Below, in pieces: positions 26,134 through 42,215 of a DNA stretch of 64,000 nucleotides; positions within the stretch are counted from its first letter, which is position 1, and every line of letters starts with the position of its first letter. The position numbers and the translations under genes are program-made. A model generated the notes under the pieces. It saw only the letters and a list, made by a program, of their open reading frames with translations, was not told where the DNA came from and did no database searches. The stretch lies in contig JBBCJC010000001.1 of the NCBI GenBank assembly GCA_037189525.1, positions 841,750 through 905,749 of the forward strand. The letters run 5' to 3'. The stretch comes from Gemmatimonadales bacterium (GTDB taxonomy: Bacteria; Gemmatimonadota; Gemmatimonadetes; Gemmatimonadales; GWC2-71-9).

Positions 26134-29004
26134 TCAGACCGCCTGACCTGCCTGGATCCGGCGATACAGCTCGGTCGTTTCATCATCAGGCTCGGTCTCG
26201 AGTTCACGCTCGACCAATGCCGTCAGTTCCTGATACAGCCGCACCGCCTGCGAGCGCGCGCCGCGGCGGGCGTGCGCCGTCATCCGCAGCCGCCAGGCCG
26301 CCTCATGCAACCCATCCCGCTCGAGCAGGCGGAGGCAACTCGCCTCGACCTCCTGATACCGTTCCCGCTGGAGGAGCCACTCGGCGTATCGCAAAGCGCC
26401 GTCGACGAACAATCGTTCGATCCGATCCCGATCTTCGAGCGCCCAATCGCCGACCGACTCCCCTTCGAGGAAGGGACCGCGATAGAGGGCCAGCGCATTC
26501 TCGAGGAGCGCCGGCGCATCGGTTGCGGACCGGCGCGCCGCGGTGAGCGCCGACGACATCTGACGATCGAAGCTCGCCGCATCGAACTCGACATCGAGCG
26601 ACGGCGCCAGCCGATACCGCTCCTCGATACTGACGATCCGATCGGTGCCGCCCAACGCTTTGCGAAGGCGGTGCAAGGTGACATGGAAGGCATTGCGAAG
26701 CTGCGCCGATGACGCCTCGGGCCAGAGCGCCGCACCGACCTGCTCCTTGGTCAAGCCGCGAGGATTGGTGAGCAGCAGCAACAGCAGTTCCCGGGCCCGG
26801 GCAGAGCCCCAGGCCGCCGGGTCGATCGGCTCCCCATGCAACCGGACCTCGAGGCGCCCCAGCGCGTGCACTACGAGCGGCGTGGGCGGCGCAACGGGAG
26901 GCTGCACTTCGGTAAAGACCGGCTCGACGGCAGCCGCCCTGGGCAGCATGTCCGCGGCAACCGCTTGCTGCGCGAGGGCTACGGCGGTTTCCGTCGACAG
27001 CGCCCGCCCCTCGGCCCACAGCGCAGCCAGGCGATCGCCGACGGTGGGCAGGATCGCGGCAACCGTGCGGTCGCGCAGGTCGGTTTCCTTGGGCCACATC
27101 GGATAGACCATGCGCTCACGGCCCGCCTCCGCCGCGCCGAACAGGCGGGCAGCCAACTCGGCGTGGGCCCCGACGAGACAGGCCGCCACCCCCTCGATCC
27201 CCTTGGTAATGCCCCATCCGTCGCTGATGGCCCAATGCAGAGCAAGCGATTTGCGGTAGAGCGGCAGTGCCTCGTCCAGTCGCCCGGCCACAGCCAAGGT
27301 AAGCGCCATACCGCTCAAGCCATGGCCGATGCCGCCCTGATGCCCGGTGTCGGTGGAATAGACGCTCTCGCGCCGGTGCCACTCGAGGGCCTGCTCCAGG
27401 TCATTCCGATGGTCGGCGCAGAGCGCGAGGAAATGACAACCGATGCCGGCCATCACGGTGCGACTGTATTGCCGCGCCATGGGCACCCCGCGCTCGAGGT
27501 CATGCACGGCGGCATCGAACTCGCCCGCGATGGTATAGGCCGCGCCGCGCATGATCAGGATGTAGGCCAGCAGCTCGCGATCTTCATCGATATCATGCGT
27601 GCTGGCGAGCGCTTCGTTCAGATAACCGAATGCCTGGTCCATCTTCGACTGCCACAACGCCAGATGACCAAAGGCTACCTGAGCCCGCACCCGCGTCACC
27701 AGCGACACCGCCGAGGGGCGTTGCAGCAGGACGGCCAGGCGCCAGATCTCCTCCGACGGGCCTCGCGACCACCAGAACCAGTGCAGCGCCCAAACCAGCC
27801 GGAAGGCGTAGCCCGGCCCCTCCTCCGATCGCAGCGACCACTCCGCCACCGCGTGGAAATTGGGCACTTCGGCCAGCAGCCGGTCGACCATTTCGCGACT
27901 GGACGGACCGCCGAAGATGGCCGGCGCCACTTCCTCCGCAATCGACAGGAAGTACTGCGCGTGGCGGCGCCGGAGGAGTTCGCTTTCGCCGGCGGCTTCG
28001 AGGTGTTCCTGCGCGTACTGGCGCACCGTCTCGAGCATCCGATAGCGCGCTTCATTGTCCGCCGACTCGAGCACGACCAGCGACTTGTCGACCAGCCCCG
28101 CCAGGAGGTCCAGGATATCGAACGAACCGAGCGGCGCCAGGCTGCCCACCACTTCCGCCGCGTCGAGCGAAAAGTCCGCCGGGAACACGGCCAGACGCCG
28201 GAGCAGGATCTGCTCCGGTTCGCTCAAGAGCGAGTGACTCCAGTCGAACGCGGCGCGCAGCGTCCGATGTCGCGGCACCGCCGTCCTGCTACCTGCGCTC
28301 AGCAATTTGAGGGCGTTGCCCAGCCGCTCGGCGATCTGCTCGATCGACAGCACCCGGACCCGGGCCGCTGCCAATTCGATGGCGAGCGGAATCCCATCGA
28401 GTCGCCGGCAAATGTCCTCGATGACGGCCCGATGCCGTTCCGCCGGCGTAAAATTCGGCACCACCCCGCGTGCCCGGCTGACGAAGAGCTCGACCGCTTC
28501 CGGCATGGCCAGCGGCGGCACCAGCCAGGCCGTTTCCGCCATCACACCAAGCGCCTCACGGCTGGTGGCGAGAACGACGAGGTTGGGACACTGGGCCAGC
28601 AGCCATTCGGTCATCTGGGCTGCGGCATCGATCAGATGTTCGCAATTGTCGAAGACGATCAGCAGCGACCGGTCGCCGACAGCCGCCGCAATCCGGCCGT
28701 AGGAGGTATCCGGCGTCTGCTCCGACATGCCCAGCGCCTGCACCACCTGCTGGACCATCTGATCGGCCTCGACCACTGCCAGGTCGATCCAGACGATCCC
28801 GTCCTGCCGGCCGGCCAGACGCATGGCGGCCTCCCGGGCGAGCCGGGTCTTCCCGCTGCCACCGGCGCCGGTGAGCGTGAGCAGGCGATTGGTACCGAGC
28901 AGCTCGTCGATGGCATCGAGCTCACGGGCGCGACCGACGAACTGGCTGAGCGGCGTCGGCGGCAGCCGCGGAGCAGGATCGGGAGACGGTGTCGGGATGG
29001 TCAT
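26134..29004 (-). CDS. STAND/NB-ARC ATPase + TPR + C-terminal OmpR-type wHTH + BTAD transcriptional regulator
   Basis: FVGRARE, Walker A GAGGSGKT, Walker B LLIVFDNCEH, LDGIPLAIELAAAR. The C-terminus is SARP-like (ALGRLEV, ALWPE..AQLRNAFHVTLHRLRKAL, ALYRGPFL, ELETEP). Start could also be 29025. Confidence 0.88.
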   Translation of the reverse strand: MTIPTPSPDPAPRLPPTPLSQFVGRARELDAIDELLGTNRLLTLTGAGGSGKTRLAREAAMRLAGRQDGIVWIDLAVVEADQMVQQVVQALGMSEQTPDTSYGRIAAAVGDRSLLIVFDNCEHLIDAAAQMTEWLLAQCPNLVVLATSREALGVMAETAWLVPPLAMPEAVELFVSRARGVVPNFTPAERHRAVIEDICRRLDGIPLAIELAAARVRVLSIEQIAERLGNALKLLSAGSRTAVPRHRTLRAAFDWSHSLLSEPEQILLRRLAVFPADFSLDAAEVVGSLAPLGSFDILDLLAGLVDKSLVVLESADNEARYRMLETVRQYAQEHLEAAGESELLRRRHAQYFLSIAEEVAPAIFGGPSSREMVDRLLAEVPNFHAVAEWSLRSEEGPGYAFRLVWALHWFWWSRGPSEEIWRLAVLLQRPSAVSLVTRVRAQVAFGHLALWQSKMDQAFGYLNEALASTHDIDEDRELLAYILIMRGAAYTIAGEFDAAVHDLERGVPMARQYSRTVMAGIGCHFLALCADHRNDLEQALEWHRRESVYSTDTGHQGGIGHGLSGMALTLAVAGRLDEALPLYRKSLALHWAISDGWGITKGIEGVAACLVGAHAELAARLFGAAEAGRERMVYPMWPKETDLRDRTVAAILPTVGDRLAALWAEGRALSTETAVALAQQAVAADMLPRAAAVEPVFTEVQPPVAPPTPLVVHALGRLEVRLHGEPIDPAAWGSARARELLLLLLTNPRGLTKEQVGAALWPEASSAQLRNAFHVTLHRLRKALGGTDRIVSIEERYRLAPSLDVEFDAASFDRQMSSALTAARRSATDAPALLENALALYRGPFLEGESVGDWALEDRDRIERLFVDGALRYAEWLLQRERYQEVEASCLRLLERDGLHEAAWRLRMTAHARRGARSQAVRLYQELTALVERELETEPDDETTELYRRIQAGQAV

Positions 29005-29047
29005 GACAGTCGAGGCAGATAACATATCGTATGTCTCGGCCGGCCGC

Positions 29048-29569
29048 TCAAACGCCGCCGGTCCGTACGCCGCGCGCGGCTGCCATGACCGGCCCATTCA
29101 GAATCTGGAGCACGTCGTCCACGATGGTCGGGATCGGCCGCTCCTCCCCGATGATCATGGGCGACCCCGGCGCATCCGTCAGCGGCTCGGCGCAGCAGGC
29201 GGCAGCAGGGGTAATCACCACCAGCCGCTCGACCCGGTCCGGATCCAGCATGGCGTATCCGATGGCCGGCGCCGACATCGGGCCATCGGCCAGGACGGAC
29301 ACCCGGTCGAGGCCGAGCCCGTCGAGGAACGGCCCCAACCAGCCTGCGAAATCTTCGGCGCCGGGGGTCACGTCGGGGGCGATCAGGCGGTAACGCTCGG
29401 CCACCGCTTCGATCACGGCATTCCAGAGCGGCAGCGGGTTCGCGGCCTGGGTCAGCAGGATCACCGGCCGGCCCGAGCCCGACCGGACGTATTCGGTAGC
29501 GGTCTTTCCCACGCGGACCACGGCGCGGAAGTTCCCGGTTCGGCTCACACTGTTGTCGTCGGTCATCAT
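29048..29569 (-). CDS. Short degenerate alpha/beta-hydrolase-fold protein
   Basis: EYVRSGSGRPVILL, YRLIAPD, FLDGLGLDRVSVL, DPDRVERLVVI. No HG or GxSxG motif. GGGAG RBS. Confidence 0.7.
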   Translation of the reverse strand: MMTDDNSVSRTGNFRAVVRVGKTATEYVRSGSGRPVILLTQAANPLPLWNAVIEAVAERYRLIAPDVTPGAEDFAGWLGPFLDGLGLDRVSVLADGPMSAPAIGYAMLDPDRVERLVVITPAAACCAEPLTDAPGSPMIIGEERPIPTIVDDVLQILNGPVMAAARGVRTGGV

Positions 29570-29659: not shown

Positions 29660-29739
29660 GCTGTTCAGCACCCAGCTACTGGCGGGGTCGCCGCCCGACC
29701 ACGGTGGCGTTGCGGCAACCATTCCAATACTCTTGAGGG

Positions 29740-29960
29740 ATATTCGTGCTGGTCGCCGGCTCGGCGTGGTCTGAGCCGGCGTGAAAAGGGAACCCGGTGT
29801 GAATCCGGGGCGGCCCCGCCGCTGTGAGGAACGACGAACGGGACAAGTAGCCCACTGCGACAGCGTATCGTTGCGGGAAGGGTGTCCTCAGTAGGATGAC
29901 TTCCGAGCCAGAAGACCTGCCAACGCGCTATTTCCTGTGTCGTCCCTCGGGGGAGGGACA
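29740..29960 (+). ncRNA. Cobalamin riboswitch (class I, AdoCbl type) upstream of metE
   Basis: AAAAGGGAACCCGGTGTGAATCCGGGGCGGCCCCGCCGCTGT...CCACTG...GGGAAG...GAGCCAGAAGACCTGCC (B12 box). L5 CCCCG (29814-18) is complementary to loop CGGGG (29948-52) of a downstream hairpin. Confidence 0.95.
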
Positions 29961-30113
29961 GCGGGCTCCGCGCTCGACGCTCGTCTTCCGACGGTGTTGG
30001 GTCCGACCGGCATGGGCTTCCTGGATTCCGATCCGGAAGCCTTCGTGTTTCCTGCCGGTGGCGCAGCTGCATTCTCCTCCGGGGTGACCATACCCAACCC
30101 GAGAGGACCTGTC

Positions 30114-32420
30114 ATGTCGTCGCACCCTGCTGTCTCCGCATCAAACCTGGGATTTCCGCGCATCGGCGCCCGTCGCGAACTCAAACGGGCTTTGGAATCG
30201 TTCTGGGCCGGAAAAGCGGATGCGGCCAGCCTCCACGCCATTGCGAGCGAGTTGCGCGCCAAGCACTGGCGACTCCAGCACGATGCGGGCGTCACCCCCT
30301 CGTCGAACGATTTCTCGTTCTACGACCAGGTCCTCGACATGGTGATGATCACGGGCGCGGTGCCCGACCGATACCGCGCGCTGGATGGTGACCCGCTCCG
30401 CCAGTACTTCGCCATGGCCCGCGGCGATCAGCGGGACGGCGTCGACCTGCCGGCGATGGAAATGACCAAGTGGTTCGACACCAACTACCACTACATCGTC
30501 CCGGAGTTCGATCAGAACACCTCGTTCCGTCTCGGCTCGGAAAAGCCGGTCGAGGAATACCTCGAGGCCAAGGCGCTGGGCATCGAGACCCGTCCCGTCC
30601 TGCTCGGACCGATCTCGTTTCTGACGCTCGGGAAAATGGCTGACGGCGGCTCGGCCCTTACGCTGCTCGACGGGTTGCTACCGATCTACGAAACGCTGCT
30701 GCGCAGGCTCGCAGCAGCGGGCGCTCGCTGGGTACAGATCGACGAACCCATCCTGGTCCTCGACCTGTCCGAGGCTCATCGAGCCGCGTTCCGCACGGCG
30801 TACGATCGGCTCGCGAAAGTGGGTGACGCACCGCAGGCCGTGCTCACGACCTATTTCGGTGCGCTGGGCGACAATCTCGACCTGGCCACGTCGCTGCCCG
30901 TCGCCGGGCTGCATGTCGATCTGGTCCGCGCTCCGGAGCAACTGGACGCGGTCCTCGCCGCCCTGCCTGCCGACCGGGTCCTGTCGGCCGGTATCATCGA
31001 CGGCCGTAACATCTGGCGCACCGACCTCGACACCGCGCTCGGCACACTGCGGACCATCGCGACCGCGCGCCCGAGATCGGGACTGATCGTGGCCCCGTCG
31101 TGTTCGCTGCTGCACAGCCCGGTCGGACTCGACACGGAAACAGCCCTCGACGCCGAGTTGCGCAGCTGGCTTGCGTTTGCCACCGAAAAGCTCTCCGAAG
31201 TCGAGGCGTTGACACAAGCACTCGGTGCGGGTGGCGAAGCCGCCGCCTCGGCGTTCGCTTCCAGCTCCGCTGCTGTGATCAGCCGACGAGCCTCGACCCG
31301 GATCCATCGAGCCGAAGTCGACGCCCGGCTCGATGCAATCACGGCCGAGTCGACCCGTCGCCAGAGCCCGTATCCGACCCGACGGTCGGCGCAGCGCTCC
31401 ATCGGACTCCCGACCTTTCCGACCACCACGATCGGCTCGTTTCCTCAGACCGCTGCGGTCCGCAACGCGCGGGCAGACCACAAGAAGGGCACGCTCGATA
31501 CGGATGCCTATGACCGTTTTCTGCGAGACGAAATCGAACGAACCGTCCGGATCCAGGAGACGATTGGCCTCGACGTGCTGGTGCACGGGGAGTTCGAGCG
31601 CAACGACATGGTGGAGTACTTCGGCGAGCGGCTCGATGGCTTTGCCTTTACCGCCAACGGATGGGTGCAGAGTTACGGGTCACGGTGTGTCAAACCACCG
31701 ATCATCTATGGCGACGTGGTCCGTCCGGCTCCGATGACGGTCAGCTGGTCGCGGTTTGCGCAAAGCCTCACCGACCGACCGATGAAGGGTATGTTGACCG
31801 GACCAGTCACCATCCTGCAGTGGTCATTCGTCCGAGACGACCAGCCGCGCGACGTGACCTGCCGGCAGATTGCCCTGGCCATCCGGGACGAGGTGGTCGA
31901 TCTCGAGGCGGCCGGCCTCCGGGTCATCCAGATCGATGAGCCTGCCATCCGAGAGGGACTCCCGCTCCGGAAAGCCGACTGGGCGCAGTACCTCGCCTGG
32001 GCCGTCGATGCCTTTCGCATCGCGTCGTCGGGGGTGCGGGACGAGACCCAGATCCACACCCATATGTGCTACTCGGAGTTCAACGATATCGTCGACGCCG
32101 TTGCCTCGATGGATGCCGACGTCGTGTCGATCGAAACCTCACGATCGAAGATGGAACTCCTGGACGCCTTTGCCAGGTTTGCCTATCCCAACGAAATTGG
32201 GCCTGGCGTCTACGACATCCATTCGCCTCGGGTGCCGCCGGAGGCCGAGATGGTTACTCTGCTTCGACGGGCAGCGGAGGTCATTCCCGCCGACCGGCTG
32301 TGGGTCAACCCCGACTGCGGACTCAAGACGCGCGGGTGGCCGGAAGTTGAACGAGCGCTGACTGCGATGGTGGCCGCGGCGCGAACCCTGCGAGCGGAGC
32401 AAGCGGCGGCCAGTAACTAG
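30114..32420 (+). CDS. metE: Cobalamin-independent methionine synthase
   Basis: [67 protein letters not shown]. Confidence 0.97.
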
Positions 32421-32711: not shown

Positions 32712-33605
32712 TCAGCCCATCAGCTGGATGATACTCGAGAAGTCGAGGGTGCCGGAGCCCGCTCGGCTGTGGACGGCGTACAAGTTGCGCGCCAGCGCGC
32801 CAAGCGGCGTCGCGGCATGGGAGGCCCGAGCGGCCTCCTCGGCCAGATCGAGATCTTTCAGCATCAGATCGGTACCGAACCCGCCGCTATAGCCACGCGA
32901 CGCCGGCACATTCTCCATCACGCCGGGCAACGGATTGTAGACCTCCAACGCCCAATTCCGTCCGGAACTCTTGGCCATGATCTCGGACAGCACCTTGGGA
33001 TCGAGTCCGTTAGCCACGCCGAGTGCCAGTGCCTCCGAGGTACCGATCATCAGAATGGCCAGCAGCATGTTGTTGCACAGCTTGGCCGTTTGCCCGGAAC
33101 CCGCGCTGCCGGCGTGGAATACATTCTTACCCATCGCCTGAAAGACGGGCCTGGCGCGTTCGAGGGCCGCTTCGTTGCCGCCCACGATGAAGGTGAGTGT
33201 TCCGGCCGCCGCTCCCCCCGTGCCGCCGGACACCGGCGCATCGAGGAACGCGGTCCCTTTTCGCTCGGCCGCGAGCCCGACCGTGCGCGCGCTGGCCGGC
33301 GCAATCGTGCTGCAATCGAGCAGCAGCACTCGGGCATCGAGCGTTGCGATCAACCCGGAAGACTCCCCGTCACCCAGATATAGGGATTCGACATGGCGAC
33401 TGGCCGGCAACATCGAGATAACGACCTCCGCTCCCTCCACCGCAGCCGTCAGACTATCGGCCAAGGGAACACCGAGTTCCGTCGCGAGTCGGCGCGCATC
33501 ATCGGAGAGGTCGAAGCCGGACACATGATATCCGGTCTTGACGAGGTTTGCGGCCATGGGTCGGCCCATGTTCCCCAGCCCGATGAAGGCAATGCGTTGT
33601 GACAT
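32712..33605 (-). CDS. mmsB: 3-hydroxyisobutyrate dehydrogenase
   Basis: IAFIGLGNMGRPMA, DAPVSGG, AKLCNNMLL, SSGRNWALEVYNPLPG. Confidence 0.93.
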   Translation of the reverse strand: MSQRIAFIGLGNMGRPMAANLVKTGYHVSGFDLSDDARRLATELGVPLADSLTAAVEGAEVVISMLPASRHVESLYLGDGESSGLIATLDARVLLLDCSTIAPASARTVGLAAERKGTAFLDAPVSGGTGGAAAGTLTFIVGGNEAALERARPVFQAMGKNVFHAGSAGSGQTAKLCNNMLLAILMIGTSEALALGVANGLDPKVLSEIMAKSSGRNWALEVYNPLPGVMENVPASRGYSGGFGTDLMLKDLDLAEEAARASHAATPLGALARNLYAVHSRAGSGTLDFSSIIQLMG

Positions 33606-33623
33606 GAGAAGCTCCTCGATCGC

Positions 33624-34736
33624 TTACGCCAGGTCCGCCAGCGGATGCGCCCCGGTATAGCGCATCACGAAGTGCTCATCGATCCACGCCGGAGTGACCT
33701 CCTCGAGCGTCGCCGGCGTCCACGACGGTTTCCGGTCGCGATCGATCAGCAGCGCGCGAATGCCCTCGGCGAAGTCGGGGTGGGCGGCACACCCAAGGGA
33801 CACGTCATATTCGAGTCGGAACACATCGCCTAACGACAGGTACGTCACCCGACGGCGCAGTTCATACGCCAATGCCGCGGAGGTCGGTGATCCCCGGCGA
33901 AAGGCGGTCACGGCGCCGGCCAACCATGGATCGGCGTCTGCGGCCTGCTGTAGACGGGAGACAATCTCAGCCAGCGTATCGTCGATACCAACGATCTCGT
34001 TGATCTGATCGAAATGGGTCCGAAGTGCGGACTCTGGTACGGTGGCGGCACGGTACCGCGTCAGGATAGCCGACAGAGCGCTTCGATCCGTGGCGGCGTG
34101 GCCTGACCAGCGGGCAGCCTCAATGGCCGATAGAACCTCGGCCCGCGCCGCATCGGGGACGACCACGTCCGCCAGCCCCGCAAAGAGCGCATCCGCGGCA
34201 TTCAGGGGCACCCCGGTCAGCGCCAGGAACAGGCCGATCCCGCCCGGCATCCTCCGCAGGAACCAGCTGCCCCCGACATCGGGGTACAGCCCGACCGAAA
34301 TCTCCGGCATCGCGAGCCGGGTCGCTTCGGTGGCTACCCGATGCGACGCGCCGGCCATGAGACCGATCCCGCCCCCCATTACGATGCCATGCCCCCAGCA
34401 CAGGAAGGGCTTGGGATAGGTGTGAATCCGGTAGTCGAGGCGATACTCTCGGGCAAAGAAATCTTCCGCGTAGGCATTCCGACCACTGCCCGCCTGGCGC
34501 ATCGAATGGTAGAGCTCATGGAGGTCACCTCCGGCGCAGAGAGCTTTCGCGCCTGCTCCCTGCAGGATCACTCCGACGACGGATGGGTTACGCGCCCACC
34601 GCTCGAGCGCGGGGTCGATCAGACGGATCATCGCGAGCGACAGCGCGTTGAGCGTCGCCTCGCTGTTCAGTGTGACCAAGCCGAAGCGATGGCCTGAGGC
34701 GGTCTCGAGCTCATCGACCAGAACGACGTCCGCCAT
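33624..34736 (-). CDS. 3-hydroxyisobutyryl-CoA hydrolase-like crotonase
   Basis: LNALSLAMI, ALCAGGDL, FFAREYRLDY, GIVMGGGIGL, AMPEISVGLYPDVG, DFAEGIRALLIDRD. Confidence 0.9.
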   Translation of the reverse strand: MADVVLVDELETASGHRFGLVTLNSEATLNALSLAMIRLIDPALERWARNPSVVGVILQGAGAKALCAGGDLHELYHSMRQAGSGRNAYAEDFFAREYRLDYRIHTYPKPFLCWGHGIVMGGGIGLMAGASHRVATEATRLAMPEISVGLYPDVGGSWFLRRMPGGIGLFLALTGVPLNAADALFAGLADVVVPDAARAEVLSAIEAARWSGHAATDRSALSAILTRYRAATVPESALRTHFDQINEIVGIDDTLAEIVSRLQQAADADPWLAGAVTAFRRGSPTSAALAYELRRRVTYLSLGDVFRLEYDVSLGCAAHPDFAEGIRALLIDRDRKPSWTPATLEEVTPAWIDEHFVMRYTGAHPLADLA

Positions 34737-34737
34737 A

Positions 34738-35526
34738 TCAGCGATTCTTCCATTCGGGCTTGCGCTTGGCGAGGAACGCGCCAACGCCCTCCTGCTGATC
34801 CTCGGTATCGAAGAGGTCGACGAACGCCTCGCGCTCACTTGGTAAGTTGTGCCGCGGCGGCAGTCCGCGCGCGCCTTGAATCAGCTGCTTACAGGCCGCA
34901 ACGCTGCTCGGGCTCTGCCCCGCAACACCTTCCGCCAGCGCCAGCGCGCGCGAAACCGACTCGCCGCGGGGCACCACCTCCTCGACCAGCCCGATGTCGA
35001 GCGCCTTCGATGCCGGCACCTTCTCTCCGGCCAGGATCATCCGTTTGGCCCACCCTTCCCCGACGAGCCAGGGCAGCCATTGCGTTCCGCCGGCACACGG
35101 CAGAAGCCCGACGCCAGCTTCGGGCAACGCCACCACGGCATGCTCTTCCGCGATCCGGATGTCGCAGGCAAGAGCGCACTCGAGGCCGCCACCCATCGCA
35201 TAGCCGTTGATCGCGGCGATCGAGACGCCACGGAACCCTGCCAGCGCTTCGAACGCCTCACCAAAGCGACGCGCCATGGCGCGTGCGATCGCCTTATCAC
35301 CCGAGGCAAACAGCTTGAGATCGGCGCCGGCCGAGAAGAATTTTTCGCCCTGGCCAGTCAGGATCAGTGAGTACACCGCGCGGTTCGCATTCAGGTCAGC
35401 GACCAGCGCCGTCAGGGCTCGAAGACTGTCTTCGGTCCAGGTATTGGCCGGTGGGTTGGCCAAGTGTACCAGGGCGGTATGTCCCCGCAATTCCAGCTGC
35501 AGGCCATGGTAGGTCGGGTTGCTCAT
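34738..35526 (-). CDS. Enoyl-CoA hydratase
   Basis: FFSAGADL, GYAMGGGLECALACD, LPEAGVGLLPCAGGTQ. Confidence 0.92.
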   Translation of the reverse strand: MSNPTYHGLQLELRGHTALVHLANPPANTWTEDSLRALTALVADLNANRAVYSLILTGQGEKFFSAGADLKLFASGDKAIARAMARRFGEAFEALAGFRGVSIAAINGYAMGGGLECALACDIRIAEEHAVVALPEAGVGLLPCAGGTQWLPWLVGEGWAKRMILAGEKVPASKALDIGLVEEVVPRGESVSRALALAEGVAGQSPSSVAACKQLIQGARGLPPRHNLPSEREAFVDLFDTEDQQEGVGAFLAKRKPEWKNR

Positions 35527-36683
35527 CGAATAGCCTCGATCGCTTCGGGTTCCAGCATTTTTCGGGAGACGATCACGCGCATGATTTCGTTGGTACCTTC
35601 GAGGATCTGATGGACGCGCGCGTCGCGCAGGTACCGCTCGAGCGGGTACTCCTTGGTGTAGCCGTACCCCCCGAACAGCTGGAGCGCCTCGTTACAGACT
35701 CGGAAACCGATGTCCGTGGCGTGCTGCTTGGCCATGGCGCAGTAGGTGGTGGCGTTACTCTCGCCCGCATCCAGCTTGCTCGCAGCGAGACGGACCATTT
35801 GCCGCGCAGACACCAGCTCGGTCGCCATATCGGCCAGCTTGAACTGCAGGGCTTGGAAATCAGCCAGGCGACGCCCGAACTGACGCCGCTCGAGCATGTA
35901 GCGCTGGGCGGCATTGAGCGCACCTTGCGCCGCACCGACCGAGCAGGTGGCAATGTTGATGCGGCCCCCGTCCAACCCCTTCATCGCAATCCTGAATCCT
36001 TCGCCTTCGGCGCCGAGCCGATACGCGGCCGGCACGCGAACGTTGTCAAAGGAGATCCCGCGAGTCGGCTGACTGTTCCAACCCATCTTTTCTTCCTTAC
36101 GACCGAAGATGACACCGGCCGCGTCCGCCGGGACCAGGAAGGCCGTGATGCCCTTCGGCCCGTCAACGCCGGTCCTCGCCATCACGACCAGCGCATCGGT
36201 CACACCGCCTCCCGACACGAACGCCTTCGATCCGGACAGGACATAGTCGTCCCCATCCTGAACGGCGGTCGTCAATAGCGAGGCGGCGTCGGAGCCCGAT
36301 CCCGGCTCGGTCAGGCAGTATGACGCCAGCTTCTCACCGCTGCTCAAGGCCGGGAACCATTCCGATGCGACCCGCTCGCCACCCCAGGTGCCGATCATCC
36401 AGGTCGACATGTTGTGGATCGTGATATACGCCGTGGTCGACGGGCAGGCCGCGGCCAGTTCCTCGAAGATGATCGCCGCGTCGAGCCGAGTCAGACCCAT
36501 GCCGCCGAGCGCCTCGCTGATGTAGAGGCCGCAGATGCCCAGTTCGCCGGCGGCGCGGATCACCTCGCGCGGGAAGATCTCCTTCGCATCCCATTCCGCC
36601 GCATGAGGCGCGAGTTGCTCGGCCGCAAACTGACGCGCCATGTCCTGAAAGGCCCGCTGGTCCTCCGACAATTCGAAGTTCAT
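35523..36683 (-). CDS. Isobutyryl-CoA dehydrogenase-like acyl-CoA dehydrogenase
   Basis: YCLTEPGSGSDA, KMGWNSQPT, GLDGGRINIA, RVHQILEGTNEIMR. Confidence 0.92.
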   Translation of the reverse strand: MNFELSEDQRAFQDMARQFAAEQLAPHAAEWDAKEIFPREVIRAAGELGICGLYISEALGGMGLTRLDAAIIFEELAAACPSTTAYITIHNMSTWMIGTWGGERVASEWFPALSSGEKLASYCLTEPGSGSDAASLLTTAVQDGDDYVLSGSKAFVSGGGVTDALVVMARTGVDGPKGITAFLVPADAAGVIFGRKEEKMGWNSQPTRGISFDNVRVPAAYRLGAEGEGFRIAMKGLDGGRINIATCSVGAAQGALNAAQRYMLERRQFGRRLADFQALQFKLADMATELVSARQMVRLAASKLDAGESNATTYCAMAKQHATDIGFRVCNEALQLFGGYGYTKEYPLERYLRDARVHQILEGTNEIMRVIVSRKMLEPEAIEAIR

Positions 36684-36691
36684 CGGGATAC

Positions 36692-38218
36692 CTACCGGAG
36701 GCTAATCGTGCTGTTGATCGGCGCAGCAACTGACTCCGATTCGAACCAGCGCGCCGTCACAGTCTTGGTCTGGGTATAGAAAAGGACCACCTGACGCCCG
36801 TAGGGGCCGAGATCGCCCAGCTTGGATGCGCGGGAGCCTGTAAACGAGAACAACGGCACCGGCACGGGAATCGGCACGTTGATGCCGACCTGGCCGACAT
36901 CGATTTCTTCCTGGAAGGTGCGCGCCGCAGCGCCCGACGACGTAAAAAGCCCGGTCCCGTTGCCGTTCGGATTCCGGTTGACGAGTTCGATCGCATCCCG
37001 AAGCGTGTCGGCCGTCATGAGACACAGCACAGGGCCGAAGATCTCCTCATCGTAGATCGTCATACCCGGCTGGACACCGGAGAAGATGGTCGGACCAACG
37101 AAGTTGCCTTGTTCAAAGCCGGGAACCGTTACATCGCGACCATCGAGTTCGAGGACGGCTCCTTCGGTGGCCCCCTTTTCGATCAGAGTCCGAACCCGGT
37201 CACGCGCCGCGCAGGAAATGACCGGACCGACATCGGTGCCTGCTTCCGTACCGGCATTGACCTTGAGCGTCTTGGCTTTGGCGACGATATCCGAAATCCA
37301 GGTTCGCGCCTCACCGACCAGCACGACCACCGAAGCGGCCATACAACGCTGCCCCGCTGCACCGAATCCGGCACCGACGATAGCGTTGAGCGTCTGCTCC
37401 TTGGGCGCATCCGGAAGCACCACGACGTGATTCTTGGCGCCCATCATGCACTGGACCCGTTTGCCGCTCTGTGAGGCGCGATGATAGACGTGAGTCCCCA
37501 CTTTGGTCGAGCCGACGAACGAGACGGCCTTGATATCGGGGTGATCACAGATGGCGTTGACCACATCGGCAGCGCCATGGACCACGTTGAGGACGCCTTT
37601 CGGCACCCCGGCTTCGAGGGCCAGCTCCACCAGGCGCATCGTCACCATCGGATCCTGCTCCGACGGCTTCAACACAAAGGTGTTGCCGGTCGCGATGGCC
37701 ATCGGGAACATCCAGAGCGGAATCATGGCCGGAAAGTTGAAGGGCGTGATCCCGGCGCAGACGCCTAACGGCTGCAGGATGGTATAGGTATCGACCCCGC
37801 CCGCAACGTTGGTAGCCAGTTCGCCCATCTGCAGATAGCCGATGTTGGCGGCATGCTCCACTACCTCGAGCCCACGGAACACGTCCCCTTCGGCGTCGGA
37901 CAGCGTCTTACCCTGTTCGGCCGTGAGCAGCGCAGCCAGTTCCTGCTGATGCGCCCGAATCAGCTGCTGATATTTGAGAAAGATTCGCGCCCGGGCGCCG
38001 ATCGGGGTCCGCCGCCAGGTGACGAACGCGGCTTTGGCCGCTGCCACCGCGGCATCGACCTCCTGCGGGGTGGCCATCGGCACACGAGCCAGGACTTCCT
38101 GTGTGGCCGGGTTGACGACATCACGCCACTTCGTCGTCTTCGAATCGACGAAGGCTCCATCGATCAGCAACTTGACGGACACGACACTCTCGACGGCGGA
38201 GCGCGGTTGAACGGGCAT
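36692..38218 (-). CDS. mmsA: CoA-acylating (methyl)malonate-semialdehyde dehydrogenase
   Basis: [51 protein letters not shown] before the ATG at 38218. Confidence 0.95.
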
Positions 38219-38250: not shown

Positions 38251-39135
38251 TCATGACGACGCACCGAAAAGAGCATCGAGCTTTCGCTCGTAGCTGTGGT
38301 AATCGATCCGATCGTACAATTCCTCGCGGGTCTGCATCAGAGTGACGACCGATCGTTGCGAGCCCTCGCGTCGAATCGCCTCGTATACCTGCTCCGCTGC
38401 CCGGTTGGCGGCGCGAAACGCCGAGAGCGGATACAGGACGATGCCGACCCCGGCGTCGGTGAGTTCCGATAATGTGAAGAGCGGGGTGCTGCCAAACTCC
38501 GTAATATTGGCCAGTACAGGCACCGGCAACGCCGCGGCGAATCGCCGATACTCGTCGAGGGTGCGTACCGCTTCGGGAAAAATGAAATCTGCGCCCGCAG
38601 CTGCGTATGCTGCGGCGCGATCGACCGTGGCATCCAGCCCCTCGGTCGCCAACGCGTCGGTACGAGCAGCCACGACGAACGCCGGATCGGTTCTGGCATC
38701 GACTGCGGCCTTGATCCGATCGACCATTTCATCTCGCGGTACGATCGACTTGTTGGGGCGGTGACCGCATCGCTTGGCACCGGCCTGATCCTCCAGATGC
38801 ACGCCGGCGGCACCTGCCCGCGTCAGATCCCGAACCGTGCGAGCGACATTGAAGGCCGATGGACCGAACCCGGTGTCGCCATCGACGAGGAGCGGCAGAT
38901 CGCAAACCCCGGTAATCCGCCGCACGTCGACCAGCACATCCTCCAACGAGGAGATGCCCAGATCGGGAAGGCCGAGCGAGCCGGCTGCGACCCCGCCACC
39001 GGACAGATAGACCGCGCGAAATCCCGCGCGCTTGACCAGCAGCGCATGATTGGCGTTGATCGCGCCGACCAGTTGAAGCGGGTGCTCACTCTTGAGCGCT
39101 TGTCGAAACCGTTGTCCGGCAGAAGTCGATGCCAT
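38251..39135 (-). CDS. prpB: 2-methylisocitrate lyase
   Basis: [38 protein letters not shown]. Confidence 0.95.
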
Positions 39136-39137
39136 GA

Positions 39138-40589
39138 TCAGATCACGTAGAGGTCGATGTAGTCGGGCACGGGCATCGCCTGCAGGCGATCCGAATCCAG
39201 CGAAACCGCAAGAATGGCCTGCTGCTGCTTGGCCGGGAATCGGCGCGCCAGGTTGGTGCGGAACTTGGCTTCCAGGAGCGGGATGCCGTCCGCTCGGCGA
39301 CGACGATGCCCGATCGGGTATTCGACCACGACTTCGTCGAGGCGCGTCCCGTCGTTCAGCTCGACCGTGACGCCGTTCGCAATCGACCGCTTTTCCGGAT
39401 CATGGTAGTCGGCCGTAAAGGCCGGGTCTTCGACGCAGTCGATCCGATCGCGCAGCGCATCGATACGAGGATCGGCTGCGACCTCATCCTCATAGTCCGC
39501 GGCCGTGAGCCGGCCGAAAAGCAGCGGCACTGCCACCATGTATTGGATGCAGTGATCGCGATCAGCCGGATTGTTGAGCGGCCCCTTCTTGTCGATGATC
39601 CGGATGCACGCTTCATGGGTACGGATCGTGACGCGAGTAATGTCGGCCGCGCTCTTGCCCTGATCCGTCAGCCGTCGGTGCAGCGTCATGGCGGCTTCGA
39701 CGGCCGTCTGGCTGTGGAACTCCGCGGGAAAACTGATCTTGAAGAGGACGTTCTCCATCACATACGTCCCGAAGGAGCGCTGAAAGGCAAACGGCTTGCC
39801 TTTGAAAAGGACGTCATAGAATCCCCAGGTCGGCGCCGTCAGGACCGACGGGTATCCCATCTCACCCTTTTGCGTCATCAATGCCAGTCGAACGGCCCGG
39901 CTGGTCGCATCACCCGCAGCCCATGACTTTCGGCTGCCGGTGTTCGGCGCGTGACGGTAGGTCCGCATGCTCTGCCCGTCGACCCACGCTTGCGATACGG
40001 CATCGATGATCTCATCGCGTGACAAGCCGAGCAGATTACCGACCACGGCCATACTGGCGACTTTGACGAGGACGACATGGTCGAGACCGACCCGGTTGAA
40101 CGAGTTCTCCAGCGCGAGCACACCCTGGATCTCGTGCGCCTTGATCATGGCCAGGAGCACATCCCGCATCAGCAGAGGAGGCCGACCCGCTGCCACGGCC
40201 GTGCGCGAGAGCCAGTCGGCCACCGCGAGGATACCTCCGAGATTGTCCGACGGATGACCCCACTCGGCCGCGAGCCAGGTATCGTTGAAATCGAGCCATC
40301 GGATCATCGTGCCGATATTGAACGCTGCCTGAACGGGATCCAGTTGAAACTGGGTACCCGGCACCCGCGCCCCGTTCGGTACGACCGTGCCCGGTACGAT
40401 CGGACCGAGCAGCTTGGTACAGGCAGGATACGACAGCGCCTCCAGCCCGCAGCCGAGTGTGTCGATCAGGCAGTGGCGCGCCGTCTCGAGCGCCAGGTCG
40501 GACACGGCCGATCGGTCGACGGCATAGTCGGCGATGGCAACCAGGACATCGTCCGGCGCGGGTCGGATATTGGAAATGTGACTGCTCAT
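39138..40589 (-). CDS. prpD: 2-methylcitrate dehydratase
   Basis: [47 protein letters not shown]. Confidence 0.96.
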
Positions 40590-40628: not shown

Positions 40629-41822
40629 CTAACGCGCATCCAGCGGCACATAGGGCCGTTCATCCGGCCCGATGTAGTTCGCGCTGGGGCGAATGATCTT
40701 GCCATCGAGCCGCTGTTCGATGACGTGCGCCGACCACCCGGTCGTCCGCGCAATGACGAACAGGGGTGTAAACATCGCCGTCGGAACGCCCATCAGGTGG
40801 TAGGACACGGCGGAGAACCAGTCCAGGTTAGGAAACATCCGCTTCGCATCCCACATCACCTGCTCGATCCGCGCGGCAATCTCGAACATCCTGGTCGAGC
40901 CGGCCTCTTCCGACAGCCGCCGCGCCACGTCCTTGATCACGACGTTGCGAGGGTCCGACACCGTGTACACCGGATGGCCGAACCCGATCACGACCTGCTT
41001 GGCTTCGAGCAGGCGGCGAATGTCGGCCTCGGCCTGATCCGGATCGTCATACCGCTGCTGGATATCGAAGGCGACCTCGTTAGCGCCGCCATGCTTGGGA
41101 CCTCTCAACGCACCAATCGCACCCGTAATCGACGAGTAGAGATCCGACCCCGTGCCGGCAATGACTCGCCCGGCAAAAGTCGACGCATTGAACTCGTGCT
41201 CGGCATAGAGCACCAGCGAGGTGTGCATGGCTTCGACCCAGGAGCGCCGAGGTGTACGACCATGCAACAGATGCAGGAAATGCCCGCCGATCGAGTCGTC
41301 GTCGGTCTCGACCTCGATCCGTCGGCCATGGGTGGCATAGTGATACCAGTAGAGCAGAATCGAACTGAGTGACGCCAGCAGCCGATCGGCAATGTCGCGC
41401 GCACCGGCCAGCGGATGATCGTCCTTTTCCGGCAGCACACAGCCGAGTGCCGACACGCCGGTGCGCATGACATCCATTGGGTGAGTGGCCGCCGGAAGGC
41501 GTTCGAGCACATTCCGCACGTCGATCGGCAGGCCCCGCAACGATGCCAGCTTGGTCTTGTATGCTGCCAGGTCGGTTCGATTGGGGAGACTACCGTGAAT
41601 CAGCAGGTGGGCCACTTCCTCGAACTCGCACTGCGCCGCAAGATCGAGAATATCATAGCCGCGATAGTGGAGGTCGTTCCCCGATCGACCGACCGTACAC
41701 AACGCGGTGTTGCCGGCAGTGACGCCCGACAGCGCAACCGATTTCTTTGGCTTGGGACCTGAGGTCGAACCTGCGGAACCCCCGACCTCAGTCGGGGCGA
41801 CGTTCGTTTCGGGAGAGATCAC
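40629..41822 (-). CDS. prpC: 2-methylcitrate synthase
   Basis: [56 protein letters not shown] start after GGAGG. Confidence 0.95.
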
Positions 41823-41904
41823 GCGTCCTCCGGCCGTAACGCATCCTACGGTCGGGAACGGTGGTCAGTATGCTCCGGGCGGCAACGAGGAGAATACCCG
41901 ACGA

Positions 41905-42058
41905 CCGCATCCTCTGACGCGAAGGACGCTGTCACTGCGATATGGCTCGTGGGCGGGCATTCGGGCTTGGCAGGAGTGCCTTACCGTTGCGCGACAGCGC
42001 CGGACTTTCACCGGCTTCCCCCGTATTGAGCCGACCACGACAGTCGGCCCCACGAACG
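41905..42058 (-). ncRNA. Compact cobalamin riboswitch (class II-like, lacking the P8-P12 extension) upstream of prpC
   Basis: Minus strand TTCGTGGG-GCCGAC..GTCGGC-TCAATACGGGGGAAGCCGGTGAAAGTCCGGCGCTGTCGCGCAACGGTAA-GGCA.CTCC.TGCC-AAGCCCGAATGCCCGCCCACGAG. P1 closes TTCGTGGG/CCCACGAG. A downstream hairpin GCGTCCT/AGGATGC has loop CGCG complementary to L5 CGCG. Confidence 0.85.
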
Positions 42059-42215
42059 TGCAACTTCCAAATCGAACGTAAGAGACGAACCCCCGGGGAT
42101 CAAGGCTGTCGGTTCCGGCAGTTTCGCTCCCAGCGCAACCTTTCCGACCGAACCGCTCCCGAGGTCCACCGCCCACATATCGAAACCATGCGACGATTGA
42201 CCGGAGACTCGCCGC

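Follow-up and report, generated by a model that had tools for sequence, protein, structure and literature searches.

A riboswitch-headed operon that may carry a B12-independent route from isobutyryl-CoA into the methylcitrate cycle in a Gemmatimonadales bacterium

Introduction

Cobalamin (vitamin B12) riboswitches are described as repressing the B12-independent genes metE and nrdAB/nrdDG/nrdEF where a B12-dependent counterpart exists (Kazanov et al., 2007, PMC2211319; Sun et al., 2013, PMC3766115). The riboswitch regulons given in the text and eight supplement files of PMC3766115 include neither prp nor mmsA, and a literature search that left subscription journals largely outside its reach found no paper that reports genes of the prp or mmsA type downstream of a cobalamin riboswitch. 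Here we describe an operon of eight genes, prpC to mmsB, in which genes of both kinds stand behind such an element. It lies in a 64,000-nt stretch of DNA (the window) from a Gemmatimonadales bacterium (assembly GCA_037189525.1, contig JBBCJC010000001.1, positions 841,750–905,749, forward strand).

Two of the closest described systems come from a bacterium and a nematode. In Cupriavidus necator H16, the mmsA3 operon (mmsA3, acaD, hbdH, crt, hibH) is reported to be required for cells to grow on valine and on isobutyrate; mutants that lack the methylcitrate pathway no longer grow on propionate, and growth on valine needs both gene sets (PMC6572756). The propionate shunt of Caenorhabditis elegans, composed of acdh-1, ech-6, hach-1, hphd-1 and alh-8, is reported to be repressed by B12, and its ACDH-1 has ACADSB as nearest homologue in humans (Watson et al., 2016, PMC4951191).

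We propose, as a reading somewhat more likely than not, that the operon encodes a B12-repressed, B12-independent route from isobutyryl-CoA through propionyl-CoA to methylcitrate, serving as a backup for two B12-dependent mutases. What is observed directly is which genes are present, in what order and how closely packed, that a riboswitch model matches in front of them, that the genome holds B12-dependent counterparts, and that such an arrangement recurs outside this lineage.

Gene content and predicted route

Protein families were called from NCBIfam bit scores against the curated cut-offs, with Pfam used for domains. The order on the minus strand is cobalamin riboswitch, prpC, prpD, prpB, mmsA, an acyl-CoA dehydrogenase (ACAD) gene, an enoyl-CoA hydratase gene, HIBCH and mmsB, and seven of the eight proteins pass curated cut-offs, the exception being the ACAD, for which no equivalog was passed. 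The three methylcitrate cycle enzymes all exceed equivalog cut-offs, namely PrpC (2-methylcitrate synthase, 40629–41822; NF009006, 703.9 bits against 550), PrpD (2-methylcitrate dehydratase, 39138–40589; NF006943, 887.8 bits against 575) and PrpB (methylisocitrate lyase of the proteobacterial type, 38251–39135; NF008455, 505.5 bits against 353), the last with 66–75% identity to the 80 closest PrpB loci. The distal valine enzymes are likewise all above their family cut-offs: MmsA, a CoA-acylating (methyl)malonate-semialdehyde dehydrogenase (MMSDH; 36692–38218; TIGR01722, 739.4 bits against 448.5); HIBCH, a 3-hydroxyisobutyryl-CoA hydrolase of the ECH_2 family (33624–34736; NF004127, 343.2 bits against 274; PF16113, 385.8 bits); and MmsB, a 3-hydroxyisobutyrate dehydrogenase (HIBADH; 32712–33605; TIGR01692, 410.6 bits against 291.6; PF03446 and PF14833). 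The enoyl-CoA hydratase is a crotonase and predicted methacrylyl-CoA hydratase (34738–35526; NF006566, 436.2 bits against 286; PF00378).

The ACAD (35523–36683) carries the N, M and C domains of its Pfam families, and its best match among solved structures is human ACAD8 (PDB 1rx0) at 468.5 bits, followed by the next chain at 324; short-chain acyl-CoA dehydrogenases (SCAD) score 262–276 bits and ACADSB (2jif) 242 bits. By this comparison it is assigned to the ACAD8 (isobutyryl-CoA dehydrogenase) group and not to ACADSB. A first-pass annotation of the same sequence had placed these five enzyme types behind prpCDB under a riboswitch, with which the coordinates, the family scores and the riboswitch match agree. 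It had also remarked that no branched-chain ketoacid dehydrogenase (BCKDH) lies within the operon, and indeed no 2-oxoacid dehydrogenase gene is found there. Candidates are present elsewhere in the genome, which holds five strong matches to 2-oxoacid dehydrogenase E1; among them, an E1alpha-E1beta-E2 cluster (L224:1472-4930) does not reach the equivalog cut-offs for PDH and may encode the branched-chain enzyme; no model names it BCKDH. HIBCH, PrpB and PrpD are each single-copy, tblastn giving no HIBCH paralogue, and a second MmsA paralogue (44% identity) adjoins an aminotransferase.

The substrate of each enzyme can be predicted from the family it matches. Valine-derived isobutyryl-CoA would be oxidized to methacrylyl-CoA by the ACAD8-type dehydrogenase, hydrated to 3-hydroxyisobutyryl-CoA by the crotonase and hydrolyzed to 3-hydroxyisobutyrate by HIBCH; MmsB would then yield methylmalonate semialdehyde, and MmsA would convert it to propionyl-CoA. 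PrpC, PrpD and PrpB would carry propionyl-CoA on to pyruvate and succinate, and the whole series would contain no B12-dependent step. Propionyl-CoA is the end product of the valine steps and the compound on which PrpC acts, so the eight genes can be read as one linear B12-free route. The methylcitrate cycle additionally requires aconitase to rehydrate 2-methyl-cis-aconitate.

The seven junctions are tight, none wider than 39 nt: 39 nt at prpC/prpD, a 4-nt overlap at prpD/prpB, 32 nt at prpB/mmsA (where AGGAG precedes the ATG at 38218), 8 nt at mmsA/ACAD, a 4-nt overlap at ACAD/enoyl-CoA hydratase, 1 nt at enoyl-CoA hydratase/HIBCH and 18 nt at HIBCH/mmsB. A consensus scan of 10.4 kb returned one promoter-like site, inside mmsA, where 1.5 were expected, thus no excess, although such a scan cannot exclude a promoter; it also returned one terminator-like site against 6.0 expected by chance. 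The first-pass annotation had raised an internal promoter that would uncouple the valine genes from the riboswitch, and this idea gains nothing from the tight junctions or from the scan, within the limit just given.

The riboswitch and its leader

Riboswitches were called with the Rfam covariance model RF00174, whose gathering score is 31.5 bits. The operon aptamer (41935–42068, minus strand) scores 48.6 bits, with E-values of 4e-9 over the whole window and 5e-11 over an 801-nt stretch, and the match spans the full model (positions 1–189). It is a short form: the conserved core is intact, while the peripheral insert (64 model positions, the CCACTG...GGGAAGG block) is swapped for 7 nt. Short cobalamin riboswitches without the peripheral extension are a known functional class. 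The 3′ end of the aptamer lies 113 nt before the GTG start of prpC on the same strand, and the intervening leader, the presumptive expression platform (41823–41934, minus strand), has GGAGGA 4 nt before that GTG. A weak candidate promoter, TTGATC-17 nt-TACGTT (42075–42103, minus strand), was picked out by eye about 7 nt before the aptamer; it does not reach the cut-off used in the consensus scan. No gene for an ScfR-type regulator stands beside the operon in the window.

From its class and position we consider it likely that B12 represses the operon. Binding of B12 to the riboswitch would turn the eight-gene unit off, and the genes would be expressed when B12 is short; repression is presumed to reach all eight.

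The B12 regulon and the B12-dependent counterparts

Four cobalamin riboswitches are carried by the genome, heading nrdA-nrdB, metE, a TonB-dependent receptor and the prpC–mmsB operon. The other metabolic targets are all B12-independent twins of B12-dependent enzymes, and the counterparts are present: NrdJ (714 bits) and MetH (2112 bits). The operon would parallel, by analogy, the pairs riboswitch-metE versus MetH and riboswitch-nrdAB versus NrdJ of the same genome.

For the operon, the counterparts would be two acyl-CoA mutases, whose large subunits were found on contig C3 (L007:8005-11226) and contig C5 (L008:9480-11030). They were typed at two alignment positions by comparison with one Chryseobacterium IcmF, the fused isobutyryl-CoA mutase, and one Chryseobacterium methylmalonyl-CoA mutase (MCM). 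The C5 protein has Tyr/Arg, like MCM, and the C3 protein Phe/Gln, like IcmF; the corresponding motifs are RLF/KEYQAQ in the C3 mutase, RMF/KEDQAQ in IcmF and RQY/KEFMVR in MCM. We take these positions to separate isobutyryl-CoA from methylmalonyl-CoA mutases, and on that footing the Phe/Gln mutase is predicted to act on isobutyryl-CoA, as an isobutyryl-CoA mutase (ICM). It clusters with a MeaB-type GTPase and with the only stand-alone B12-binding subunit of the genome (PF02310 matches are this subunit and MetH). The first-pass annotation had pointed to icm genes as worth seeking, and the search was positive in the form of this split mutase; the Tyr/Arg large subunit is a separate one. As expected for a split form, the C3 mutase scores 387.9 bits against a cut-off of 1500 with the IcmF model NF045497. 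The only model that it passes is that of the generic mutase N-terminal domain (750.6 against 303.8). Its best match among solved structures is 2-hydroxyisobutyryl-CoA mutase (575 bits), IcmF matching residues 199–567 only. There are two large subunits and one stand-alone small subunit, and the C3 and C5 proteins may share it. A PCC-beta-like gene lies elsewhere in the genome.

Under the proposed scheme, the ICM-type mutase would convert isobutyryl-CoA to butyryl-CoA for beta-oxidation and the MCM-type mutase would take propionyl-CoA to succinyl-CoA through methylmalonyl-CoA, both with B12. The vitamin is probably imported by this organism, since CbiC was not found in the assembly, which is 98% complete.

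The metE unit (29733–32420, plus strand) is convergent with the operon and comprises the second riboswitch of the window (29733–29938; RF00174, 117.8 bits) and metE (NF003556, 1151 bits against 541). Its longest frame starts at 29937, overlapping the end of the aptamer; the family match begins only with residue 67, which makes 30114 or thereabouts the probable true start. Upstream of this riboswitch, a 987-aa frame (26134–29097, minus strand) with 79–83% DNA identity in two same-genus genomes looks, by its translation, like a large ATPase-type transcriptional regulator. On contig C2, a 320-aa frame (L207:5638-6600) just after riboswitch nrdA-nrdB, on the opposite strand, contains the catalytic MetE domain only (PF01717, 477.7 bits).

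An accessory operon beside a core mutase

The counts given here for relatives, and below for Chryseobacterium, were drawn from kin and thus lack independence. A search of 40 relatives turned up no HIBCH, and no PrpC was found in 21 same-genus genomes; the 40 gave a single weak PrpC match (38% identity). The Phe/Gln mutase has an orthologue in 37 of the 40, scored by identity (at least 68%) and not by residues. Across a phylum sample of 401 genomes, HIBCH occurs in three, the window genome included. Two same-genus genomes align with the window on both flanks and not over the operon: one retains riboswitch-metE and has 4.8 kb of different DNA behind it, and in the other the segment 29627–43927 is missing entirely. 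The operon is thus an insertion, acquired and accessory, in a background where the ICM-type mutase is core. This conclusion comes from synteny with the same-genus genomes and not from GC content, which is 63.5% in the operon versus 65.6% in the window.

By sequence, the nearest gene sets are on metagenome contigs and in one genome of the same order, with identities of 78% for PrpC, 76–78% for MmsA and 72–76% for the ACAD. PrpB of the nearest syntenic contig, L108, is of a different type (40% identity) from the proteobacterial-type PrpB of the window. Two ScfR-type regulators (helix-turn-helix, M78-like, PF09856) are encoded on that contig at L108:1-1113 and L108:4897-6414, one divergent from prpC and the other from mmsA.

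Recurrence in other lineages

Loci from elsewhere were searched for riboswitches with RF00174 and with R1, our own cobalamin riboswitch covariance model, which has only 12 base pairs; R1 recovered four riboswitches outside its training set, all confirmed by Rfam. A regular-expression screen for the aptamer core was dropped, as it missed all Chryseobacterium riboswitches and matched many coding regions.

Among the 80 closest PrpB loci from species genomes, valine genes lie downstream in only two, both from Chryseobacterium and both with a strong riboswitch upstream. In a sample of 121 genomes from that genus PrpB is present in 15, and RF00174 matches stand about 470 nt upstream of prpB on the same strand in all 15 (90–105 bits, one match being truncated where its contig stops). 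The leader between the aptamer and the prpB start, about 440 nt at L081:8534-8976, is unusually long and has no convincing open frame; its spacing is kept in the 15 genomes. The order prpB-prpC-prpD-mmsA-ACAD-HIBCH-mmsB followed by the enoyl-CoA hydratase gene (ECH) is seen in 13 of the 15, and HIBCH occurs in exactly those same 13 of the 121 genomes. IcmF above the 1500-bit cut-off is found in 118 of 121. Since both the gene order and the form of the aptamer differ from those of the window, the two arrangements look separately assembled. In one of the prpBCD-only Chryseobacterium genomes (G066), a second cobalamin riboswitch (L196:5829-6014; R1, 133 bits) lies after prpD and before a 767-aa frame.

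A metagenome sample yielded 80 loci with HIBCH. In two, L152 (102.4 bits) and L177 (54.8 bits), Rfam places a riboswitch immediately ahead of mmsA-ACAD-ECH-HIBCH-mmsB, and no prp genes precede the set. The L152 operon (L152:6101-12692) continues into queH, the start of which overlaps the mmsB stop. QueH is the B12-independent counterpart of QueG, and the contig looks like an operon of B12-independent alternatives.

In two other Flavobacteriales loci, L219 (genome G749) and L220 (G744), prpB-prpC-prpD is followed directly by HIBCH, and tblastn with MmsA, ACAD and MmsB of the window found nothing beside them. R1 matches upstream of prpB in these loci (12.5 and 10.5 bits) were counted as absent because Rfam did not confirm them.

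Weighing the explanations

The first-pass annotation had offered two readings of the genes, with a propionate shunt as its headline and, as the alternative, breakdown of isobutyryl-CoA that bypasses isobutyryl-CoA mutase and feeds PrpC. The icm-type mutase and the ACAD8-type entry enzyme speak for the alternative, and the headline has become the less likely of the two. We favour the alternative because the genes form a linear route, because the other metabolic riboswitch targets of the genome follow the same twin logic, and because two unrelated lineages each combine a core mutase with a HIBCH route that is accessory and riboswitch-gated. A wider proposal, which we put forward tentatively and with some doubt, is that in many bacteria ICM or IcmF is the default fate of valine-derived isobutyryl-CoA, and that the textbook HIBCH route, alone or joined to the methylcitrate cycle, is a horizontally mobile backup that a riboswitch gates and that serves when B12 is short; IcmF would then serve valine catabolism.

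Several observations weigh against this interpretation. In two of the 15 Chryseobacterium loci the riboswitch stands on prpBCD alone, and the choice between MCM and the methylcitrate cycle could be logic enough for riboswitch control. Elsewhere the pairing is rare: a riboswitch was found in two of 36 metagenome valine loci with at least 700 nt upstream (seven have a divergent ScfR gene and 27 have neither), in two of the 16 PrpB loci scanned with Rfam, and in two of the 80 PrpB loci by R1, whose negative result on the other 78 is moderately strong only, Rfam having been run on those 16 of the 80. In L219 and L220, Rfam found no riboswitch at prpBCD-HIBCH. ScfR regulators serve the same-order genome G361 and L108, the contig nearest in synteny, and no riboswitch was found on their prp or valine genes. 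In the window, the 146-nt leader folds no better than its shuffles (z = -1.0) and the consensus scan shows no terminator-like site in it; should control act solely on the translation of prpC, the seven genes behind it would be repressed only through coupling or polarity. The ICM assignment rests on two alignment positions compared with one IcmF and one MCM, and the cluster of the Phe/Gln mutase is followed by a carboxyltransferase gene, which is more in keeping with a carboxylated substrate. Co-occurrence with ICM or IcmF is correlational only, among kin that are not independent.

Some of these points would be explained if the riboswitch served only to decide whether the methylcitrate cycle or MCM is used. 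The valine genes would then stand in the operon simply as a source of propionyl-CoA, their repression being incidental or offset by an internal promoter and the Phe/Gln mutase unrelated. The prpBCD-only loci, the sufficiency of that choice as B12 logic, the unproven substrate of a mutase followed by a carboxyltransferase gene, and a leader whose fold gives no clear expression platform are all consistent with this, yet we judge it unlikely: in L152 and L177 the riboswitch directly precedes valine genes with no prp in front, in Chryseobacterium no HIBCH lies outside the riboswitch operon (13/121) and IcmF is near-universal (118/121), and the junctions of the window leave no room for an intergenic promoter, the scan giving none above chance. 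Another view, that the aptamer is a decayed or non-regulatory relic or works in the opposite sense, with control lying elsewhere, for example with a substrate-sensing regulator, could appeal to the modest score (48.6 bits), the missing peripheral extension and the ScfR-type regulators of the nearest syntenic relatives. It seems very improbable for an element that is above the curated cut-off over the full length of the model, keeps its core, lies on the right strand 113 nt before the first gene and belongs to a short form known to be functional; moreover, the same pairing carries strong aptamers (90–105 bits) in all 15 Chryseobacterium loci, and no ScfR gene adjoins the operon in the window.

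The propionate shunt itself would run from propionyl-CoA through acrylyl-CoA, 3-hydroxypropionyl-CoA, 3-hydroxypropionate and malonate semialdehyde to acetyl-CoA, repressed through the riboswitch when MCM works, and an MCM-type mutase is indeed present as the B12-dependent alternative. L152 and L177 show presumably B12-repressible control of exactly this enzyme series with no prp genes nearby, an arrangement that fits the isobutyryl-CoA route equally. The chemistry is permissive as well, in that HIBCH is reported to take 3-hydroxypropionyl-CoA at 57% of the rate with the valine intermediate and MMSDH to take malonic semialdehyde (PMC3249182), all three C. necator MmsA enzymes are described as handling both aldehydes (PMC6572756), and the worm shunt and valine breakdown share homologues (PMC4951191). 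The entry enzyme, however, is of the ACAD8 type (468.5 bits) and not of the ACADSB type (242 bits), and ACAD8 is reported to prefer isobutyryl-CoA (PMC3249182). The first-pass annotation had rightly noted that the hydroxyacid step uses a family other than that of the worm, HIBADH here as against the ADHFE1 type, so that two of the five worm-defining enzymes are unmatched. Joined to prpCDB in one operon, a shunt would draw on propionyl-CoA in competition with PrpC, and in C. necator, by the account in PMC6572756, the methylcitrate mutant lost growth on propionate despite the five-gene set. With HIBCH single-copy, the classical valine route would be gone whenever the operon is off, and another fate for isobutyryl-CoA would be called for. 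We therefore hold a dedicated shunt to be decidedly unlikely; 3-hydroxypropionate formation as a side activity of the isobutyryl-CoA route is possible.

Comparison with known systems

If the isobutyryl-CoA route is what the operon encodes, the methylcitrate cycle and the classical valine route enter the cobalamin riboswitch regulon, and B12 supply would rewire valine and propionate catabolism in B12-dependent soil and host-associated bacteria. The genomic evidence, so far correlational, would also bear on the role of the widespread IcmF/ICM mutases, and sparing at the level of a pathway would give IcmF a physiological role. In its mutase the window genome resembles the described ICM/IcmF enzymes (NF045497; PDB 4xc6), the C3 protein sharing Phe/Gln with Chryseobacterium IcmF and having a MeaB-type GTPase and a B12-binding subunit nearby. 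IcmF is fused, whereas the C3 mutase is split and finds its best structure match in 2-hydroxyisobutyryl-CoA mutase.

The C. necator mmsA3 operon resembles the window in holding the same five enzyme types in one operon and in the dependence of valine use on the methylcitrate cycle. It differs, as far as the sections of PMC6572756 drawn on here describe it, in that the genes form two separate loci, an AraC-type regulator gene lies upstream of the mmsA3 operon, and neither a riboswitch nor a link to B12 is reported. The ScfR-regulated (PF09856) clusters of L108 and G361 are the nearest by sequence and also have prp and valine genes adjacent, but they comprise two transcription units, each with a divergent ScfR gene and with no riboswitch.

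The C. elegans shunt and the window share a series of dehydrogenase, hydratase, hydrolase, dehydrogenase and aldehyde dehydrogenase under repression by B12, which for the window is predicted, and three of the five step families, ECHS1, HIBCH and ALDH6A1. They part at the entry step, ACADSB-type in the worm and ACAD8-type in the window, and at the hydroxyacid step, ADHFE1-type versus HIBADH. Control in the worm is by transcription factors; in the window it would be by RNA, over genes fused with the methylcitrate cycle, which consumes propionyl-CoA. The parallel is thus a tempered one, as the principle of control would converge, but the more likely starting point of the chemistry is isobutyryl-CoA, one carbon skeleton further up.

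The same principle is seen in the metE and nrd riboswitches, where, as would be the case for the window operon, a B12-independent alternative is turned off, and both of these classic pairs are found in this genome. Those cases concern single isozymes, whereas the window holds an eight-step pathway that may stand in for two mutases. The known principle by which a riboswitch shuts off single B12-independent isozymes thus appears here to cover an eight-step catabolic route, and the same pairing recurs in unrelated lineages with different gene orders.

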